A stretch of 64,000 nt of DNA from Bacteroidota bacterium. GTDB taxonomy: Bacteria > Bacteroidota > Bacteroidia > 2-12-FULL-35-15. This document shows, in pieces, positions 10,456 to 59,305 of the stretch (within the stretch, counting starts at the first letter, position 1; each line of letters opens with the position of its first letter). The stretch is taken from NCBI GenBank assembly GCA_040388745.1, contig JAZKBF010000032.1:82246-146245 (forward strand). The letters run 5' to 3'. The position numbers and the translations under genes are program-made. Below the pieces are notes generated by a model. That model did not search any database. It had not been told where the DNA came from and saw only the letters and a program-made list of their open reading frames with translations.

Positions 10456-10498
10456 TAATTTTATGAATTTAGATTAGATACTAAACTTTACAAATAAA

Positions 10499-12183: not shown

Positions 12184-12646
12184 AAGATATACTTATTTCC
12201 GGTTCAGTGATTTTTGCAATTTCTTCTTTTGTTTTTCCACCATCTTCAGCATAGTGTTGCAGATCAGCTACAGATGTAGTATCAGTGAATGCAACACCTT
12301 CAATGAAAACAATTTTTCCACCTGCATCTTTTGGTAAAAAGAATGCATAATCTTTAAAACGAACTTTCATGCTTTGGTTGTCACCGATATTCATATTCAT
12401 CCAGCAACCTTTTTTCTGACAAACATCTTCGATTGCACCGGTAATTTTTATTTTTAAAGAATCTTTTCCTTTCATTTGGGCAGCCAGCTGGTCAGCAGCA
12501 ATAGCGCCTTCCTGGGTGATGCTATCGCCAAAATATTGCAGTGTAGTATCAACTGCAGATAGTTCATTATTGTTTTCTGATTTGTGATCAGAACATGCTG
12601 CGAAAAGCGCAATACCAAGGGTTGACAGGAATAGTAATTTTTTCAT
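12152..12646 (-). CDS. DUF4920-like lipoprotein.
   Basis: Signal peptide plus lipobox FAAC|S and a KKGCWMNM motif. Size is 164 aa. Confidence 0.5.
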   Translation of the reverse strand: MKKLLFLSTLGIALFAACSDHKSENNNELSAVDTTLQYFGDSITQEGAIAADQLAAQMKGKDSLKIKITGAIEDVCQKKGCWMNMNIGDNQSMKVRFKDYAFFLPKDAGGKIVFIEGVAFTDTTSVADLQHYAEDGGKTKEEIAKITEPEISISFEANGAILKK

Positions 12647-12716
12647 TTTTTTATGTTTGTGTTTTTAAAATGTAGTACAAAGATAATTTTTAAAATTAAC
12701 TAATTAGTACATTAAT

Positions 12717-13445
12717 TTATATGTCTAAATTAATGCATGCTTGTTCCGAAACCATTTGTTCCGCTCGTTTTTTGGAAAAATGTTGAGCGGTACCAACTGT
12801 TTCATTTTCTACAATTAGTTGAATAATAAATTGTTTATCGGCTGCGGTTCCGGCATCATTAACAACCTCGAAACGAAATTCTTTTTTTTCTTTTTGAACC
12901 CATTCAATAAATTTACTTTTAAAATCTATTTCCTTCGTTTCCACTTCATCCATATCAATATGAACATTAATAATGCGGGTAAGAATAAAGGTTTGAGCGG
13001 CATTATACCCTTTATCGAGATAGATGGCGCCAATCAAAGCTTCATACGCATCGCCACTGATAGAGCTTGGTTGAGAAGTTTTAAAGCGATCGTTATTAAC
13101 TTCTATAAATTTATTCAGTCCTAAGTTTTTGGCAACCTGATTGTGTTTTGCTCTGCTCACCATCTTTGAGCGCATCTTGGTTAAAAAACCTTCATCTTTG
13201 AATGGGAATTTTTTAAAAAGATAATCCGCTACTACAGTTCCGATTATAGAATCGCCAAGGAACTCAAGACGTTCATTGCTGTCTTTTACTCCTTTTTTTA
13301 TCATCTGTGCAGCAGAACTATGGCGGAATGCTAATTTATACAAAGCAATATTGCCAGCATAAAAGCCGAGAATATTACGCAATGATTCATGAAATGTTTT
13401 GTCGGGTGAAAAGTATATCCTTAAAGGTTTTGAGAAGAGGGTCAA
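12717..13445 (-). CDS. rnc: Ribonuclease III.
   Basis: RNase III signature ERLEFLGDS plus a C-terminal dsRBD, in a 242-aa protein. Lies downstream of fabF as in many Bacteroidota. Confidence 0.9.
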   Translation of the reverse strand: MTLFSKPLRIYFSPDKTFHESLRNILGFYAGNIALYKLAFRHSSAAQMIKKGVKDSNERLEFLGDSIIGTVVADYLFKKFPFKDEGFLTKMRSKMVSRAKHNQVAKNLGLNKFIEVNNDRFKTSQPSSISGDAYEALIGAIYLDKGYNAAQTFILTRIINVHIDMDEVETKEIDFKSKFIEWVQKEKKEFRFEVVNDAGTAADKQFIIQLIVENETVGTAQHFSKKRAEQMVSEQACINLDI

Positions 13446-13648
13446 GGGTAGTATTTAATATTTAATAAGTAATATGTAATATGTAATAGGCAAAAGGAAT
13501 GTAATATGTAATAGTTAATACGTAATAACTGTGTTTTGTAAACCATTGATTAGAAATAAATTCTGCTGTATTTTTGGCTTTACCAGCAGACATTACATAT
13601 TAAATATTACCTATTAAATACGATACTAAATATTACCTATTAAATATT
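13446..13648 (-). promoter_or_regulatory. Structured AT-rich leader between fabF and rnc. Long imperfect inverted repeats built from GTAATATGTAATA units flank a 60-nt core that carries its own hairpin.
   Basis: The unit GTAATATGTAATAG occurs directly twice, at about 13476 and 13501. Inverted, related copies (CATTACATATTAAATATTACC) lie at about 13590-13650 and include the duplication AAATATTACCTATTAAATA x2. The core CTGCTG...CAGCAG at 13564-13589 is a separate hairpin. Confidence 0.5.
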
Positions 13649-14905
13649 TTATGCAATGTATTTTTTTACAATAACAGAAGCATTGTGTCCGCCAAATCCG
13701 AATGTATTGCTTAATGCGGCATTCACTATACGTTTTTGTGCTTTATGAAATGTAAAATTAAGTTTGTTATCTAATGCAGGATCATCATTAAAATGATTGA
13801 TTGTAGGAGGGATAATATCATTTTGCACTGCCATTACACAAGCAATAGCTTCAATAGCTCCTGCAGCACCTAATAAGTGGCCGGTCATTGATTTTGTTGA
13901 ACTGATATTTAATTTATAAGCATGTTCTCCAAAAACCTTAAGTATGGCTTTTGTTTCTGCAACATCACCAAGCGGTGTAGATGTTCCGTGAACGTTCACA
14001 TAATCGATCTGATCAGCAACCATACCTGCATCTTGCAAGGCATTCTGCATTACATTTATAGCGCCTAATCCTTCAGGATGTGGTGCTGTAATGTGATTTG
14101 CATCAGCTGTTAAACCGCCACCTGCAACTTCAGCATATATTTTGGCGCCACGTTTTAAAGCATGTTCCAATTCTTCTAAAATCAAACATCCTGCACCTTC
14201 ACCAAGTACAAAACCATCACGATCCACATCAAAAGGGCGGGAAGCTGTTTCCGGAGAATCATTTCGTGTAGAAAGCGCATGCATTGCGTTAAAGCCACCA
14301 ACACCTGCTTCACAAACGGCAGCTTCAGAACCTCCTGCTACAATAATATCAGCTTTGCCTAATCTGATATATAATGCTGCGTCAATAAGAGAATTGGTAG
14401 AGGATGCACAAGCCGAAACAGTAGTAAAATTAGGTCCGCGCATGCCAAACATAATAGAAATATGTCCTGAACAAATATCAGCGATCATTTTAGGGATAAA
14501 GAAAGGATTAAAACGTGGAGTTCCATCACCTTTGGCATACGCAAAACATTCGTCTTGAAATGTTTGCAAACCACCAATTCCAGTACCCCAGATAACACCT
14601 GCTTTATCAGGATCGAAAGCGTTTTCACCGTCCAACCCGGCATCACGAACAGCTTGAATAGCTGAACATACACCATATTGAGAGAACGGATCCATTTTTC
14701 TGGCTTCCTTACGGTCTAAATACTCTTCTACATTAAAGCCTTTTACTTCGCATGCAAATTTCGTTTTAAACTTTGAAGCATCAAAACGAGTAATAGGCGC
14801 AGCTCCGCTAACACCCGTGATAAGATTGTTCCAATAATCTGTAACATTATTACCAAGTGGTGTAATAGCACCAAGTCCTGTAACTACTACTCGTCTTGTT
14901 TTCAT
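13649..14905 (-). CDS. fabF: 3-oxoacyl-[acyl-carrier-protein] synthase II.
   Basis: 418-aa KAS II protein with an active-site Cys context (SACASS) and the two catalytic His regions (VNVHGTSTPLGD and GHLLGAAG). Confidence 0.9.
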   Translation of the reverse strand: MKTRRVVVTGLGAITPLGNNVTDYWNNLITGVSGAAPITRFDASKFKTKFACEVKGFNVEEYLDRKEARKMDPFSQYGVCSAIQAVRDAGLDGENAFDPDKAGVIWGTGIGGLQTFQDECFAYAKGDGTPRFNPFFIPKMIADICSGHISIMFGMRGPNFTTVSACASSTNSLIDAALYIRLGKADIIVAGGSEAAVCEAGVGGFNAMHALSTRNDSPETASRPFDVDRDGFVLGEGAGCLILEELEHALKRGAKIYAEVAGGGLTADANHITAPHPEGLGAINVMQNALQDAGMVADQIDYVNVHGTSTPLGDVAETKAILKVFGEHAYKLNISSTKSMTGHLLGAAGAIEAIACVMAVQNDIIPPTINHFNDDPALDNKLNFTFHKAQKRIVNAALSNTFGFGGHNASVIVKKYIA

Positions 14906-14924
14906 AAAATAAATCGTTTAGGAA

Positions 14925-15161
14925 TTATTTTGTATTTGCTTCAATGTAAGAAATAGCGTCACCAACGGTAGCAATTTTTTCTGCCTGATCGTCTGGGATA
15001 GCAATATTAAATTCTTTTTCAAACTCCATTATTAATTCTACAGTGTCTAATGAATCGGCACCTAAATCATTTGTAAAGCTAGCTGTTGGAGTAACTTCTT
15101 TTTCGTCAACTCCTAATTTATCAACGATGATAGCTTTCACTTTTGTTGCAATTTCTGACAT
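14925..15161 (-). CDS. acpP: Acyl carrier protein.
   Basis: 78 aa with the phosphopantetheine attachment site [11 protein letters not shown]. Confidence 0.9.
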
Positions 15162-15443
15162 TTTTTTAAATGTTTTAAGGTTAATTAGGGTGCAAAGATA
15201 TAGTTATGTGTATAATAACAAAAAAAATAATTTAAAATCGCTGTTATTTATACATTTATTAACCCTTACCTATTTATTATCAGGCAATTAAAAAATAATA
15301 AAAGGTTTTTTGGAAAATAAAAAATATGATAAAAGAGATTTTTTTTAGTGTTACGAGCCGTTTTTTTGTTGCACAAGATTAGTTGTGGAGAAGAATAGGA
15401 CTGAAGAATTCGTAGATTTGTAAAAAAATGTTGTTCGTACCCA

Positions 15444-16013
15444 ATGAAAAATATTGCCATTTTTGCTTCCGGAGAAGGTACCAATGCTCAAAACATTATT
15501 GATTATTTTAAATCGCCTAGCTGCGGGATAAAAGTGAAATTAATTGTTTCAAATAATTCAGGGGCCAATGTATTGAATCGTGCAAAGGAAGCCGGTATCC
15601 AGAGTATAGTTATAGACCGCGCTACATTTTATAATAGCGATCAACTTATTGATCAATTGAAATCAGCACACATTGATCTAATTGTATTGGCGGGCTTCTT
15701 ATGGAAGGTCCCTGAAAATCTGATTAAAAATTTCCCTGATAAGATCATTAATATTCACCCTGCCTTATTGCCCAAGTATGGTGGGAAAGGCATGTACGGC
15801 ATGAATGTGCATAAAGCGGTGGTAGACGCAAAAGAAAAAGAAAGCGGAATAAGTATTCATTTTGTAAATGAAAATTATGATGAAGGTCAATTAATTGAAC
15901 AGCATATTTGTTCGGTTGAACCTTCTGATACACCAGAAACAGTGGCATACAAAATTCATCAGTTGGAAAACGAATTTTTTCCAAAAGCAATTTTTGAATT
16001 GCTGATGAATTGA
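15444..16013 (+). CDS. purN: Phosphoribosylglycinamide formyltransferase.
   Basis: 189 aa with an N-terminal IAIFASGEGTN motif and a formyl-transferase NIHPALLP motif. Confidence 0.85.
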   Translation: MKNIAIFASGEGTNAQNIIDYFKSPSCGIKVKLIVSNNSGANVLNRAKEAGIQSIVIDRATFYNSDQLIDQLKSAHIDLIVLAGFLWKVPENLIKNFPDKIINIHPALLPKYGGKGMYGMNVHKAVVDAKEKESGISIHFVNENYDEGQLIEQHICSVEPSDTPETVAYKIHQLENEFFPKAIFELLMN

Positions 16014-16095
16014 TCTTATTTTTTTTCTATTATTTTCTTGAAACATTTTTCATACATTCGAAGTACAACCTCACCAAATTATTTGTCGCAAGAAA

Positions 16096-17102: not shown

Positions 17103-17223
17103 GTTATTATAAATAGTTTATGGATATAAATCAATTAATTGTATTGCCACCAAGTCATGCTGAACTTGTTTCAGCATCTATGAGATTCCGAAACAAGTTC
17201 GGAATGACCAACAATATGCTGTA

Positions 17224-20053: not shown

Positions 20054-20089
20054 TAAAAATTGAGCTCGCATGATTGAGTGAAACCATTT

Positions 20090-20288
20090 GGGCGTTCCCT
20101 TAAAAACCTCAGCCCTTCTCTCTCCATATGGAGAGAGAAGGGCTGAGGTTTTTAAGGGCGGGCTTTGAGTTTATCCTGAGCGAAGTCGAAGGGCTTCAAT
20201 CTTTCCCGATAAAAATCGGGAAAGCCTGCCCGAATGAACGGATTCATTCGTTCGGGCGGGGATTTACGCTGCAATCCCTAACGCAGCC
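20090..20288 (+). repeat. Intergenic multi-hairpin repeat element, copy A (full length, about 200 bp).
   Basis: Begins GGGCGTTCCC and ends ...GGGCGGGGATTTACGCTGCAATCCCTAACGCAGC. Contains three palindromic modules, including CCCGAATGAACGGATTCATTCGTTCGGG. Related copies lie at 22349..22477 and, inverted, at 23280..23377. Confidence 0.8.
20102..20153. terminator. Strong bidirectional rho-independent terminator (perfect 21-bp-arm palindrome with flanking A5/T5), embedded in repeat copy A.
   Basis: AAAAA-CCTCAGCCCTTCTCTCTCCAT|ATGGAGAGAGAAGGGCTGAGG-TTTTT. Lies 50 bp downstream of the M43 protease stop. Confidence 0.7.
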
Positions 20289-20435
20289 TTCAGGTTGAAA
20301 CTATAAGCCTGCTTAAATTTGTTCAAAAATAGTTTTTCAACCTTCGCACTATTTCCCGACTCAGCTCGAACAATGTCGTTTAGTTAAGAGAAAAATATCC
20401 ACCCACAGTCTTCGACAAGCTCTGACTGACCGCGC

Positions 20436-20565
20436 GCTGGTCATATTGAGCCTGTCGAAATATGTGCGAAGGCTTCTAAAGTAAACGACATTGTCCCCTC
20501 GAAATGACCATTCGCGCTGTCATTTCGAGCGGAGTCGAGAAAGTGGGTCAGCTTCCATAAGCAAT
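20436..20565. repeat. Second palindromic intergenic repeat family (GTCATTKCGAG-type nested hairpins), one copy.
   Basis: TCGAAATGACCATTCGCGCTGTCATTTCGAGCGG hairpin plus the CGAACAATGTCGTTTAG / TAAACGACATTGT inverted pair. Related to elements at 28098..28190 and 32641..32700. Confidence 0.6.
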
Positions 20566-20607
20566 GTTTATTCTTATAAAAAATTAAACAGGTTCTTTAT
20601 AAATTAC

Positions 20608-20652
20608 CAAAAAAAATGTCCGCCTTTCCAATTGGGAGGCGGACATTTTTTT
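20608..20652. terminator. Bidirectional rho-independent terminator downstream of the ABC-F gene.
   Basis: AAAAAAAA-TGTCCGCCT-ttccaattggg-AGGCGGACA-TTTTTTTT, 16 bp below the stop of the minus-strand gene. Confidence 0.75.
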
Positions 20653-20667
20653 TGAAAACAAAAATTT

Positions 20668-22317
<1,650 letters not shown>

Positions 22318-22348
22318 TTACTAGTTTTTGGAATTATTATTTTTATTT

Positions 22349-22477
22349 GGGCGTTCCCTTTCTGAAAAAGAAAGGTCGGGCTTTCCACTTCAATCTTTTC
22401 TTAAACAAGAAAAGCCTGCCCGAATGAAAGAACTCATTCGTTCGGGCGGGGATTTACGCTGCAATCCCTAACGCAGC
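22349..22477 (+). repeat. Intergenic multi-hairpin repeat element, copy B.
   Basis: GGGCGTTCCCTTTCTGAAAAAGAAAGG...GCCTGCCCGAATGAAAGAACTCATTCGTTCGGGCGGGGATTTACGCTGCAATCCCTAACGCAGC. The 3' approx. 90 nt are near-identical to copy A. Confidence 0.8.
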
Positions 22478-22590
22478 ATTCACATTGAAAGAACCATGAA
22501 TGCATTTCCAGAGGCTACAAAGGTAATGAATTTTTGCCAATTAGAGAGGTAGAAGTGGTTCGATTGTTAGGGTCAGAATTATTGAAATAT

Positions 22591-22632
22591 AAAACCCCTA
22601 AAGGCTTTCTGCCGCCTTTAGGGGTTTTTATT
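22591..22632. terminator. Bidirectional rho-independent terminator.
   Basis: AAAACCCCTAAAGGC-tttctgcc-GCCTTTAGGGGTTTTTATT, immediately 3' of the minus-strand gene ending at 22650. Confidence 0.7.
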
Positions 22633-22649
22633 CAGACTTTGTGATCCGT

Positions 22650-23144: not shown

Positions 23145-23279
23145 AATATGGGTTAGGTTTAATTGTTTAAATAAATTTTTTGCATTTACAAATGTACCTT
23201 TTTTTATTTCGAACACGATTTCATTTAAATGGTAACCTTACATTTGTTTTATTGAAATTGATTTAACTCCATTGTTAAA

Positions 23280-23377
23280 GCTGCGTTAGGGATTGCAGCG
23301 AAAATCCTTCTCCGATTTTTATCGGAGAAGATTGAAGCGCAAAGCCCGCCCTTTCTTTTTCAGAAAGGGAACGCCCC
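23280..23377 (-). repeat. Intergenic repeat element, copy C. It is inverted and shorter, lacking the CCCGAATGAA module.
   Basis: GCTGCGTTAGGGATTGCAGCG...TTCTCCGATTTTTATCGGAGAAG...CCCTTTCTTTTTCAGAAAGGGAACGCCC, the reverse complement of the family ends. Confidence 0.75.
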
Positions 23378-23426
23378 AATATTTATAAGGATAACGCCTT
23401 AATCTTCAATCTAAATCCCCCTAAAA

Positions 23427-24280: not shown

Positions 24281-24964
24281 ATGGCTATAAAGAAAACTAT
24301 TTCTACAAAATCAAGCCCTGCAGTAGCGGGGAAAGTTCCTGCAAAAAAGATCGCTGCAAAAAAATCTCCGGTTAAAAAAGCTACAGCTCCTAAGAAAGTT
24401 GCGGCTGCAAAAAAAGCAGCACCAGCAAAAAAAGCAGCAGTTTCTAAAAAAGCGGTTGTTGCAAAAAAAGTTTCTGCGCCTAAAAAAGCAGCAGCTCCTA
24501 AGAAAGCCGCTAAAAAAGAAGCTGGAAAGATCATCAAAAAGCTTCCTGCAAAACTGTTGAAGACTAAAACGTCAGAAAAGGGAAAAGCAACAAAGTCGGA
24601 TGCTGTAAAAAGTGCGATCCAGTTGCTTGTTGATGCGGCAGTGGAAGGTGTTTTGGAAGTAAAAGGAAAAAACATTGCTATTCTTGACCTGCAAAGCATA
24701 CATAACCGTGTTTGTGATTATTATATCATTTGTCAGGCCGATTCAAGCACTCAGGTAAATGCAATTGCAGGTTCGGTTGAAGAAATGGTGAAAAAACGTA
24801 TTGGTGAAAGACCATATCATACGGAAGGGTTTCAAAATTCAGAATGGATCCTTGTTGATTACGTAAATGTGGTAGTGCATGTTTTTCAATCACATATTCG
24901 TGAGTTTTATAACCTGGAAGCCTTATGGGCTGATGCAGAAATAACCAAAATTGCTTTTGATTAA
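24281..24964 (+). CDS. rsfS: Ribosomal silencing factor RsfS (Iojap) with an unusual ~110-aa lysine/alanine-rich, histone H1-like N-terminal extension.
   Basis: The C-terminal ~115 aa (GKNIAILDLQSI...DYYIICQADSSTQVNAIAGSVEE...WILVDYVNVVVHVFQSHIREFYNLEALW) form the RsfS/DUF143 fold. The N-terminal half is KKAAP/AKKA repeats. The opposite-strand ORF 24274..24699 is the low-complexity shadow of this region. Confidence 0.7.
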   Translation: MAIKKTISTKSSPAVAGKVPAKKIAAKKSPVKKATAPKKVAAAKKAAPAKKAAVSKKAVVAKKVSAPKKAAAPKKAAKKEAGKIIKKLPAKLLKTKTSEKGKATKSDAVKSAIQLLVDAAVEGVLEVKGKNIAILDLQSIHNRVCDYYIICQADSSTQVNAIAGSVEEMVKKRIGERPYHTEGFQNSEWILVDYVNVVVHVFQSHIREFYNLEALWADAEITKIAFD

Positions 24965-24970
24965 AACTCC

Positions 24971-25045
24971 TACGAATTACGAATTTAAAAACGAATTACG
25001 AATGATAGCATTATCAATGCATAACTGCTTTTCGTAATTCGAGAA
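24971..25045. repeat. ACGAATTACGAAT direct repeat x2 plus an inverted copy TTCGTAATTCG, between rsfS and ftsH.
   Basis: Direct copies at about 24973 and 24994, with the inverted copy at about 25031. May form a terminator or attenuator-like stem. Confidence 0.4.
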
Positions 25046-25090
25046 ATCCGTAATTTTAAGTATAATTTATTTTAAGAACGAACAATAAAT

Positions 25091-27151: not shown

Positions 27152-27157
27152 TAGTAG

Positions 27158-27279
27158 AACGCAGATAACGCAGATCGTTTATGATAAACACGGATAAAAA
27201 ACTGATTAATCATAAATTTTATTTTAAACATAAATAAAAAATCATTTTTGATCCTAAACAATCTGCGTTATCCGCGTTC
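27158..27279. repeat. About 20-bp inverted repeat GAACGCAGATAACGCAGAT / ATCTGCGTTATCCGCGTTC enclosing an 80-nt AT-rich spacer, immediately 3' of ftsH.
   Basis: Left arm at 27158-27176 and right arm at 27259-27279. Possible long-stem terminator, sRNA or MITE-like element. Confidence 0.5.
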
Positions 27280-27343
27280 CATTTTGCTAATAGAATTTGC
27301 TCAAAATAAAATTCAGAACTACAAGATGTAAAAAAGTTTTTTT

Positions 27344-28000: not shown

Positions 28001-28097
28001 TTTGATATTAAACTTTTCCTTCTTTTACAATCCACTGTTATATTGCTTTTAAATTAGACTACATATAAGTTAATTTATTAAAATAATTGAATGCCCA

Positions 28098-28190
28098 TTT
28101 GGAACGTCATTGCGAGGCACGAAGCAATCTCAAACAATCATAGGAGTGAGATTGCTTCGGCTGAAAAGTCTCGCAATGACGCATTGAATG
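28098..28190. repeat. Nested-palindrome intergenic element of the GTCATTGCGAG family.
   Basis: Outer arms CGTCATTGCGAG / CTCGCAATGACG. Inner hairpin GAAGCAATCTCA...TGAGATTGCTTC. Confidence 0.6.
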
Positions 28191-28263
28191 AAGCTTTTTA
28201 TAAAAAAAACCATAACACTTTAACTTATATAAAGTCTATTGAAATGGTTGAATAATTAAAAAT

Positions 28264-28470
28264 ATGGAACCAAATTGGGTAAGCATATACACTTCTTCTT
28301 ATCTTCACACCGCAGAATTATTTAAAGCTTTGTTAGCTGAAAATAATATTCTAAGCATTATAATCAATAATCAGGATTCGTTTTATAAAACAATTGGAGT
28401 GGTGGAGCTATATGTTGAGCGCGACAATGTGATTTTAGCCAAGCGAATCATAAACGAAAATAACCTGTGA
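28264..28470 (+). CDS. DUF2007-like small protein (putative signal-transducing protein fold).
   Basis: 68 aa matching the DUF2007 pattern (W..VY.....EAE..K.LLEENGI...N.QDS.Y...G.VE..V). The stop overlaps the GTG start of cdsA, suggesting translational coupling. Confidence 0.5.
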   Translation: MEPNWVSIYTSSYLHTAELFKALLAENNILSIIINNQDSFYKTIGVVELYVERDNVILAKRIINENNL

Positions 28471-40599: not shown

Positions 40600-40718
40600 G
40601 GTATTGTTTTTGATTTCAAGTAAAGGTATGAATAGTTTTGAATAGTTTCTTCTTCCATATCTCAACTAAATATTTACAAATAAGTTAAGGGGATCAAAAA
40701 TTGAAAAAGATAACCTTA

Positions 40719-40802
40719 ACCGCAAAGACGCTAAGGCGCAAAAGTGTTGATACTAAACTGTTTGTTTTTTAATTTTTCTTTGCGTCTCTGCGTCTTTGCG
40801 GT
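40719..40802. repeat. Imperfect ~25-bp inverted repeat ACCGCAAAGACGCTAAGGCGCAAAAG / CTTTGCGTCTCTGCGTCTTTGCGGT with a ~30-nt spacer.
   Basis: Lies between the TPR-membrane-protein stop (40838) and the hydrolase start. Plausibly a terminator or attenuator stem. Confidence 0.5.
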
Positions 40803-40837
40803 AAAAAATGAATTTTTAGAACTGCCCTAAATGGGTA

Positions 40838-57739: not shown

Positions 57740-57804
57740 TTTAGGTCAAAATTGAAAATTCGAGAGTTTAAGCTTTGTAAACCATAAATTAGGCGCTCGA
57801 CTTT

Positions 57805-57835
57805 TAACTTTTAACTTTTAAACTTTTAACTTTAA
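57805..57835. repeat. Short tandem repeat (TTTTAAC)x4 immediately upstream of the flippase gene.
   Basis: cttttaacttttaacttttaaacttttaacttt. Confidence 0.6.
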
Positions 57836-59305
57836 TTGACTCCACTAAAAAAACTCGCTTCGCAAACCGCTATTTATGGCCTTCCAACAATTGTTGGGCG
57901 TTTGTTGAATTATTTTCTTACTCCACTTTATACGTATTTATTTTCACCTGCTGAGTTTGGGGATGTAACTTCAGCTTACGCCTATGTTTCTTTCCTGTTG
58001 GTGTTTTTAACCTATGGTATGGAAACCTCTTTGTTTCGGTTTTCACAAACAGAGATCGAAAAGGAAAAGGTTTATTCAACAGCTCTTATTTCACTTTTTG
58101 TTTCCTCTTTCACTTTTGTTATCCTTACAAGTTTTTTTGCAAACTCTATTTCCGAAACACTTAATTTTTCCGGCCATCCCGAATATATAATTTGGTTTGC
58201 GCTTATTTTAGGATGCGATGCTTTTTCTGCTATTCCCTTTGCAAAGCTTCGGGAACAGAATAAAGCCAAACGATTTGCAATTATCAGATCACTTAACATT
58301 GCTGTTAATATTGGATTGAATTTATTTTTTCTTTGGTTTTGCAAAGGCGTTCATGACGCTCCAGAGTCAATATTCAAGCCTTTTGTAGACATGGTTTATA
58401 GCCCGGAAATTGGCATAGGTTATATATTTATTTCAAATCTCGTAGCTAGTATAATTACAATGATTTTGTTGAGCCCGGAAATTTTTTCGGTAAAATGGAA
58501 TGTGGATACTGTGCTTTGGAAAAAAATGATGAAATACAGTCTTCCTTTACTTGTAGCGGGTTTGGCAGGGATGACAAATGAAACACTGGATAGGGTTTTG
58601 ATTCCGCTTTTACTTCCGGAAGAAATTGCGAAAAGCCAAAACGGAATTTATGGCGCCTGTTATAAAATTGCTATTTTAATGACCATATTTATTCAGGCCT
58701 TCCGGTTTGCAGCAGAACCATTCTTTTTCAGTCATTCAAAAGAAAAAGATTCTAAAAAGACCTATGCTGATATTATGAAATATTTTGTGATCATTTGTTC
58801 CATCATTTTTCTTGGAACCATGATGAATATGCAATGGATACAATATTTTGTGGGTGAAAAATACAGAGAGGGGCTGGATGTGGTACCAATTTTATTGATT
58901 GCCAACTTGTTTTTGGGCATTTTTATCAACCAATCGATCTGGTATAAGCTTACCGGACAAACGGGATATGGTGCAATGCTTACTATTTTTGGAGCGCTCA
59001 TCACTATTTCGCTCAATATTTATTGGATTCCCCGCATTGGGTATATGGGATCGGCCTGGGCAACACTGATCTGTTATGCTTCTATGATGGTTGCTTCCTA
59101 TTTTTTAGGTAATAAACATTATCCTGTTAATTATGATTTAAAACGGATTTTGGGGTACTTGGGATTATCCGTAACTTTGTATTTTATTAGTGTTTTTGTG
59201 AGAACAGAATCAGTCGGTATTAATTTATTTTTAAATAATTTGATGTTGCTTGTTTTTGTTGCTGTTGTCTGGAAAATGGAGGGGAAAAACTTAGTAACAA
59301 ATTAA
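57836..59305 (+). CDS. MOP-superfamily oligosaccharide/polysaccharide flippase (Wzx-like).
   Basis: 489 aa with about 12-14 transmembrane helices, and an N-terminus (LKKLASQTAIYGLPTIVGRLLNYFLTPLYTYLFSPAEFG) typical of polysaccharide-biosynthesis protein families. TTG start in the ORF track. Confidence 0.7.
   Translation: MTPLKKLASQTAIYGLPTIVGRLLNYFLTPLYTYLFSPAEFGDVTSAYAYVSFLLVFLTYGMETSLFRFSQTEIEKEKVYSTALISLFVSSFTFVILTSFFANSISETLNFSGHPEYIIWFALILGCDAFSAIPFAKLREQNKAKRFAIIRSLNIAVNIGLNLFFLWFCKGVHDAPESIFKPFVDMVYSPEIGIGYIFISNLVASIITMILLSPEIFSVKWNVDTVLWKKMMKYSLPLLVAGLAGMTNETLDRVLIPLLLPEEIAKSQNGIYGACYKIAILMTIFIQAFRFAAEPFFFSHSKEKDSKKTYADIMKYFVIICSIIFLGTMMNMQWIQYFVGEKYREGLDVVPILLIANLFLGIFINQSIWYKLTGQTGYGAMLTIFGALITISLNIYWIPRIGYMGSAWATLICYASMMVASYFLGNKHYPVNYDLKRILGYLGLSVTLYFISVFVRTESVGINLFLNNLMLLVFVAVVWKMEGKNLVTN

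Follow-up and report, generated by a model that had tools for sequence, protein, structure and literature searches.

The 203-nt spacer between fabF and rnc in the stretch of Bacteroidota DNA analysed here (64,000 nt at its full length, the window) is best explained as a member of a class of palindromic intergenic repeats specific to this lineage, processed by RNase III as a side effect, a reading to which we assign a probability of about 0.65. We call the members of this class tandem-unit palindromes; in each of them one arm repeats a 7-9-nt unit in tandem and the other repeats the reverse complement of that unit. The first-pass annotation had read the spacer as a highly structured leader, possibly a target through which RNase III regulates its own gene in the manner of E. 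coli rncO, and had also considered an embedded small RNA and an operator-like repeat array. The structure that it described is present, the same build recurs at other gene junctions, and the sequence that forms it is replaced between closely related genomes.

Structure and transcription context of the fabF-rnc spacer

The genes at the locus and the parts of the spacer are listed below in the direction of transcription.

15193-15222, minus strand: match to the Bacteroidetes-type promoter TTTG-N-TAnnTTTG upstream of acpP, a consensus match only
14925-15161, minus strand: acpP, acyl carrier protein (Pfam), first gene of the presumed acpP-fabF-rnc transcription unit
13649-14905, minus strand: fabF, beta-ketoacyl-ACP synthase II (Pfam ketoacyl-synt N and C domains)
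13649-13651, minus strand: fabF stop codon, adjoined by the 5' arm of the transcript hairpin
13446-13648, minus strand: the whole fabF-rnc spacer, 203 nt, one tandem-unit palindromic element of type A (GTAATAT family)
13583-13648, minus strand: 5' arm in the transcript, tandem ATTTAATAGGTAAT / TATTTAA units that start directly after the fabF stop
13528-13590, minus strand: core or loop, with its own small CTGCTG...CAGCAG hairpin at 13564-13590
13448-13527, minus strand: 3' arm in the transcript, where the plus strand reads GTAATAT x 11.9 (TRF, period 7); the paired part stops at 13457
12717-13445, minus strand: rnc, RNase III, with a TTG start (13443-13445), Ribonuclease_3 and dsrm domains and the NERLEFLGDS signature

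The GTAATAT array is faced by a second array of 7/14-nt units (13592-13648, 8.4 copies at period 7 by TRF), inside which 24 nt are duplicated (13597-13620 and 13623-13646, 96% identical). The two arrays are mutually reverse-complementary, with 31 inverted pairs in total and a best arm pair of 29 nt at 93% complementarity, and the spacer has long terminal inverted repeats, arms of ~65 nt enclosing a core of ~55 nt. Folding of the minus-strand RNA of 13440-13660 gave -49.3 kcal/mol; dinucleotide shuffles gave -29.1 +/- 3.6, and none of the 200 was as stable (z = -5.67). The plus strand of the same region gave -48.1 kcal/mol (z = -2.75). The predicted duplex has ~65 pairs, four of them G-U, spans 13457-13648 and stops 11 nt short of the rnc TTG. 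The inverted-repeat spacer, its internal duplication, the inner CTGCTG...CAGCAG hairpin and the stable long duplex immediately ahead of a genuine RNase III gene, all claimed in the first-pass annotation, are in this way borne out, and by its Pfam domains rnc encodes an intact enzyme. An exact look-up of the window RNase III protein matched no record, and a cmscan search of 12500-15500 against Rfam (E up to 10) gave no match in the spacer.

The units of the two arms are confined to this spacer within the window. Allowing at most one mismatch, GTAATATGTAATA occurs four times in the 64 kb, each time within the spacer, where 0.28 occurrences are expected and 0 of 100 shuffles reach four; the right-arm unit is likewise confined to the spacer in the same search.

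The transcription context was examined with promoter and terminator scans. The spacer contains neither a Bacteroidetes-type nor a sigma-70-type promoter match, and the terminator scan found nothing in it on either strand; its stem is AU-rich and is followed by ACUACCCUUG, without a U-tract, and so does not resemble an intrinsic terminator. Because the promoter match lies upstream of acpP and none lies in the spacer, the duplex is probably part of the rnc transcript, with acpP, fabF and rnc co-transcribed; matches to this promoter type are not enriched in the window overall (11 versus 7.7 expected). Relatives in which fabF and rnc are 6-10 nt apart point the same way, as an rnc promoter outside fabF is hardly possible there, and we infer that co-transcription of acpP-fabF-rnc is the most economical arrangement. 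The rnc TTG start stands at the homologous position in nearly all relatives (L001-L023), L009 having ATG, and the database gene calls in several of them begin rnc 20-47 codons late (195-221 aa, not 242).

The fabF-rnc junction in related genomes

To compare the junction we used 23 loci from uncultured Bacteroidota (L001-L023), obtained by a one-genome-per-species scan with the RNase III protein, and ten further 20-kb loci, six of them from new sources, obtained by exact look-up of the AcpP protein (the AcpP set). Gene order was kept in 23 of the 23 loci from the scan, with spacers of 6-10 nt in five clade members (L006, L010, L011, L012 and L023), 9-30 nt in five outgroups and 64-240 nt in the rest; the spacer was long in all ten loci of the AcpP set. 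The short-spacer genomes are basal in a rough tree of FabF plus RNase III. Judged by this comparison, the hairpin is an insertion into an ancestrally tight junction of 6-10 nt, because basal relatives and outgroups have no more than 6-30 nt. No target-site duplication flanks the element when it is set against the empty sites of L010 and L023.

Among the 17 genomes with an rnc at least 80% identical, 14 carry a hairpin at the junction, built from one of three unrelated unit families and lying in either of two orientations. The close-relative hairpins are 113-280 nt long, with a -MFE per nt of 0.23-0.37. The families are distributed as follows.

Type A, GTAATAT: the window, L001, L003 and L004; in the AcpP set L104, L109, L110 and L111
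Type B, GATGTGCTGAT / ATCAGCACATC: L002, L005 and L016; in the AcpP set L106, L107, L108, L112 and L113
Type C, GTATCAG (GTATCAGG / CTTGATAC): L009; in the AcpP set L105

Degenerate remains of type B are found in L014 and perhaps also in L008 and L013, the L007 spacer holds a direct GAGATGT array only, and altogether the hairpin is degenerate or lost in L006, L007, L008, L014 and L015. Types A and B are interleaved relative to the phylogeny of the flanking genes. An example is the pair L002 (the same as L108) and L003, the former with type B and the latter with type A despite flanks that are 91-100% identical; a search of the flanks for a recombination tract around the L002 spacer showed none. 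Through all these changes the boundaries of the hairpin are constant, 0-3 nt after the stop codon and 2-20 nt before the start codon in every family and orientation. The first-pass annotation had asked for conservation of the repeat architecture upstream of rnc, and two outcomes that it would itself have counted as refuting are largely what is seen: a long hairpin is kept in the close relatives, but it is absent from basal members and outgroups, and among the close relatives unrelated sequences replace it.

Within a family the element evolves in steps of whole units. The type A copies of the window, L001, L003 and L111 differ almost solely by indels of unit multiples. The core is kept in L001, L003 and L111; in alignment comparisons L001 and L004 lack it or have another sequence in its place. 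In L104 the element, core included, lies in reverse-complement orientation relative to that in the window, the two cores aligning over ~90 nt only when one of them is flipped. This speaks against a small RNA or a leader tied to one strand. Other repeats are nested in two copies. The loop of L113 contains a copy of the hairpin found at 17154-17208 of the window, and in L110 most of the type A arms have been lost to a GC-rich repeat that is also present at 20159-20204 and 22340-22414 of the window, so that a different repeat supplies the structure there.

Aligned identity between same-family copies is 0.85-0.92, compared with a background of ~0.75 between unrelated types and 0.50-0.70 at third codon positions of fabF and rnc. 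The element is therefore either constrained or spread as alleles by recombination, and the data fit both; an excess over third-position identity is not predicted for a purely selfish or neutral element unless alleles recombine. In a matched table of orthologous co-directional junctions (relatives were folded at intergenic regions only), the one junction that combines length with strong structure throughout, in the window as in all 13 close relatives, is fabF-rnc; the other junctions have hairpins in none to three genomes. This constant occupancy is the sole hint of selection.

We also noted a direct array of type B units (AATGTGCTAAT / GATGTGCTGAT) just downstream of rnc, at 12694-12716 in the window, 3703-3790 in L113, 3730-3775 in L002 and 3730-3780 in L003; it is expanded to three 24-nt copies in L113 and is a remnant in the window. 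In L108, L112 and L113 this array can pair with the 3' arm of the upstream type B element and so bracket the rnc ORF (-30 to -42 kcal/mol, z -3.6 to -5.4). Strong pairing of this kind is limited to these three loci, and a long-range interaction across rnc, being unconserved, was not adopted.

Tandem-unit palindromes at other junctions

The same build, tandem units facing their complements, is found in at least three further hairpins of the window, each between co-directional genes; TRF array pairing was too strict and missed imperfect members, and BLAST self-hits were also conservative.

24965-25090, plus strand: TACGAAT units and their complements, at the rsfS-ftsH junction
27152-27343, plus strand: AACGCAGAT units, at the ftsH-LUD junction, with arms at 27157-27195 and 27241-27279
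40666-40837, minus strand: CGCAAAGA / CTTTGCGT units, between two minus-strand genes, with arms at 40716-40742 and 40779-40805

In the relatives, hairpins of this build occupy the purN-rnhB junction in L001 (CGCAGAG units), L005 (GTATCAAG) and L006 (ACGAAT-like), the junction between a histidine kinase and a response regulator gene (HK-RR) in L001/L109 and L110, and further junctions in L011, L013, L104 and L106. The class amounts to about one element per 15-25 kb over 244 kb. Different loci share unit families: the TACGAAT family of 24965-25090 is also present elsewhere in L001/L109, L104, L006, L007 and L110, ACGAAT units occur at five junctions or more, CGCAGAG-like units at three, and GTATCAG units form both the fabF-rnc element of L009 and the purN-rnhB element of its sister L005. 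Replacement of one family by another at purN-rnhB resembles that at fabF-rnc. Some class members also follow a stop codon closely, in gaps between genes that are co-directional or convergent.

These junctions are polymorphic between very similar genomes. Between genomes that are ~99% identical, the HK-RR spacer measures 43 nt in the window (10456-10498) as opposed to 186 nt in L001 (6028-6213), and the purN-rnhB spacer 82 nt in the window (16014-16095) as opposed to 241 nt in L001 (region 250-520). Both L001 spacers hold 160-170 extra nt of tandem-unit hairpin between genes whose proteins are ~92-99% identical, and the remainder of each spacer differs as well, which looks like allele replacement and not like a clean insertion. 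No clean insertion boundary was found at the polymorphic junctions, where the whole spacer differs.

Outside the lineage the build is rare. A scan with the FtsH protein gave 80 loci from distant Bacteroidota (at most 79% identity), among which two examples were seen (L070 and L071); as the scan yielded distant relatives only, it is unusable as a matched control for the hairpins that flank ftsH. Taken together, the presence of the build at other junctions and its rarity in distant Bacteroidota make the fabF-rnc hairpin a member of a lineage-enriched class and not a device peculiar to rnc. The GTAATAT family itself was seen at no second locus, either in the 64 kb of the window or across ~200 kb of sequence from close relatives, and dispersal is therefore shown for the class and not for this family. 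As to the concern raised at the outset, that the unit might be scattered as a generic repeat, GTAATAT is confined to its spacer in the 64-kb window, and it is the tandem-unit hairpin build that recurs.

Several other repeats were observed in the window. GC-rich, highly structured dispersed repeats lie at 20054-20667, 22303-22649 and 23217-23426; they share modules such as GGGCGTTCCC...GGGCGGGCTTTG and GCTGCAATCCCTAACGC, include a perfect 31+31-nt palindrome at 20097-20158, and are the family of which a member is nested in the L110 fabF-rnc element. The 614-nt spacer among them folds with z = -15.8. The double-palindrome hairpin GTCATGCTGAACTTGTTTCAGCATCT / AGATTCCGAAACAAGTTCGGAATGAC at 17154-17208, between an EVE-domain and an AsnC-type gene, is a dispersed repeat that targets other hairpins, since the copy in the L113 fabF-rnc loop is 87% identical to it. 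A long composite hairpin at 28001-28466, between two plus-strand genes, has an inner GTCATTGCGAGGCACGAAGCAATCTC...GAGATTGCTTCGGCTGAAAAGTCTCGCAATGAC that resembles another dispersed palindromic repeat. A direct heptamer array (ACTTTTA x 4.7, 57800-57833) ends 2 nt before an ORF start at 57836, the layout in which TAACTGA arrays precede start codons in Beggiatoaceae and in some Bacteroidetes (PMC4679880). Lastly, an 18-nt tandem repeat of 7.5 copies (24373-24507) lies in the N-terminal extension of the RsfS-domain ORF at 24281-24964, in which the RsfS domain begins at residue 120; the calls in relatives have 115-226 residues.

Proposed mechanism, alternatives and related systems

On the reading that we prefer, a tandem-unit palindrome processed by RNase III, the element would originate and be maintained mainly at the DNA level, through slippage of units, exchange between the arms, recombination between genomes and possibly transposition. 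It changes mainly by gaining and losing whole units, can flip, takes up other repeats in its loop, and is exchanged or replaced between related genomes. In the acpP-fabF-rnc mRNA an AU-rich imperfect duplex of ~65 pairs would form between the fabF and rnc cistrons. The general substrate of bacterial RNase III is double-stranded RNA of at least two helical turns (about 20 bp or more), and by analogy the duplex, as long double-stranded RNA, is a likely substrate. RNase III would cut this intercistronic double-stranded RNA as it does in the Correia elements of Neisseria, where transcribed inverted repeats form hairpins that the enzyme binds and cleaves (PMC2649163). Cleavage would uncouple a low-level rnc message from an abundant acpP-fabF message, and, incidentally, rnc expression would come to respond to free RNase III, as it does through rncO in E. 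coli (PMC5371410). The fabF-rnc hairpin may plausibly act as a site of RNase III feedback.

The occupancy of the junction could also reflect a dedicated, selected RNase III operator, at which cleavage controls the stability or translation of the enzyme's own message and structure alone is selected, such that any palindrome serves. It would account for a long stable hairpin at fabF-rnc in all 14 close relatives when neighbouring co-directional junctions have one only sporadically, for boundaries that survive three unrelated unit families and both orientations, and for conservation of same-family copies above the level of synonymous sites; an intact RNase III is encoded next to the hairpin, and E. 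coli rncO is a precedent (PMC5371410). We nevertheless regard it as doubtful. The hairpin is missing from the basal clade members and all outgroups and is decayed or lost in five loci (L006, L007, L008, L014 and L015), identical architecture stands at unrelated junctions, families turn over in the same way at purN-rnhB, and in L110 the type A arms are mostly gone and another repeat gives the structure. Mismatches in the arms (G.T 25 versus A.C 17, with 62 transversions) carry no sense-strand RNA signature, neither strand folds better in a consistent way, there is no Rfam match, and covariation within type A (27 pairs, nearly all invariant) has little to say, as indels, not substitutions, separate the copies. 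We are similarly tentative about a related proposal, in which the fabF-rnc duplex is kept because RNase III senses it, a structure-only operator being recruited, replaced and flipped from a pool of palindromes whose members act as RNase III processing sites genome-wide. Of the rncO-like target first suggested for this spacer there stand the stable duplex upstream of rnc, its probable presence in the transcript and the hairpin in close relatives; a conserved leader and a strand signature do not, and the build is found elsewhere. The other two suggestions did not hold. An operator-like array bound by a transcription factor, or a small RNA gene embedded in the spacer, would suit the regular spacing of the tandem units and the small hairpin in the core, but the units of L002, L106 and L112 are unrelated to those of the window, L003 and L111 despite nearly identical flanks (91-99% for L002 compared with L003 and the window), and an operator array fails because units differ between near-identical genomes. 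The core is also flipped in L104 and missing or altered in L001 and L004, and the spacer has neither promoter nor terminator match on either strand and no Rfam match. Given this unit turnover and the inverted core, both readings were rejected as very improbable.

The position of the hairpin, 0-3 nt after the fabF stop in every family, and the location of other class members just after stops between co-directional or convergent genes, would equally suit a terminator, attenuator or 3'-end stabiliser of the acpP-fabF message that lowers read-through into rnc like REP/BIME, with no role for RNase III. ACP and FabF are required at far higher levels than RNase III, which such an element would serve. 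The AU-rich stem is unlike canonical intrinsic terminators, however, no U-tract follows it and the terminator scan of the spacer was empty; moreover, with no rnc promoter match downstream of the hairpin, strong termination would leave rnc unexpressed, and we consider this reading unlikely. Still less probable, in our view, is that the spacer is neutral or selfish DNA and nothing else, a palindrome produced by replication slippage, template switching between the arms and recombination, with no effect on expression. Much of the evolution of the element fits such an origin, namely change through unit indels, the flipped copy in L104, the repeats nested in L110 and L113, decay or loss in several lineages, and the finding that neither strand folds consistently better when fabF-rnc spacers are compared. 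But the junction is occupied in all close relatives, and by the established substrate rules it is very unlikely that RNase III and ribosomes would ignore a near-perfect mRNA duplex of 55-65 pairs.

If RNase III cuts the duplex, a selfish palindromic repeat inserted in a 9-nt intercistronic gap would have created a feedback loop on a global RNA-processing enzyme, and the loop would have survived complete turnover of the repeat sequence; if the duplex is left uncut, this is an ordinary repeat insertion. Constant occupancy of fabF-rnc through complete sequence turnover is unusual and directly testable, and a role specific to rnc is not established. At one per ~15-25 kb, tandem-unit palindromes are frequent enough to affect the architecture of operons and to hamper both gene calling and the assembly of metagenomes.

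RNase III sites in phage T7 and within operons such as rpsO-pnp are short, specific and conserved stem-loops, in which internal loops direct single cuts. Like these, the fabF-rnc element is intercistronic in a polycistronic mRNA and could separate differently expressed cistrons; unlike them, its duplex is long, repetitive and subject to fast turnover. Of these, pnp is mentioned in the paper on rncO (PMC5371410). With rncO itself the element shares its place, a stem-loop just ahead of rnc within the rnc transcript, which could allow self-control (PMC5371410). It differs from rncO in having no homology in sequence or structure (no Rfam match), in being intercistronic after fabF and not in a 5' UTR behind rnc's own promoter, and in its far longer, repetitive duplex, which is confined to one subclade and belongs to a repeat class also found at unrelated genes.

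Among intergenic repeats, the element resembles the Correia elements (CREE/nemis) and bacterial MITEs, which are intergenic, 100-250 bp long, bounded by long inverted repeats, often co-transcribed with their neighbours, variable in presence among close strains and able to lie in either orientation. Unlike CREE, whose copies share one consensus, its arms are tandem 7-9-nt units that are specific to a locus or family; unlike MITEs and CREE, no target-site duplication was seen. Tandem heptamer repeats (LSSR, the TAACTGA type and cyanobacterial STRR) likewise consist of intergenic 7-nt units, change by indels in 7-nt steps and are replaced in some relatives by shorter, repeat-free spacers. Such arrays have been reported in a few Bacteroidetes and are described as direct and usually upstream of start codons, a single inverted case being mentioned (PMC4679880), whereas here a direct array is paired with an inverted copy to give a long hairpin. 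We found no published description of paired inverted tandem arrays as long hairpins, and they seem to be a kind of bacterial intergenic repeat not described before, one that links tandem heptamer arrays with MITE- and REP-like palindromes. The REP/BIME/REPIN sequences of Proteobacteria are also palindromic, intergenic and situated just after stop codons within operons; they influence mRNA stability and differential expression, and the spacers that hold them differ between strains at orthologous positions (PMC3116915, PMC3333891). REPs differ in being 20-40 bp long, GC-rich, of one consensus per genome and tied to RAYT transposases, where the arms described here are long, AU-rich and made of tandem units. 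Overall these comparisons indicate that the fabF-rnc element is not a homologue of rncO and works most like a Correia-type or REP-type repeat inside an operon.
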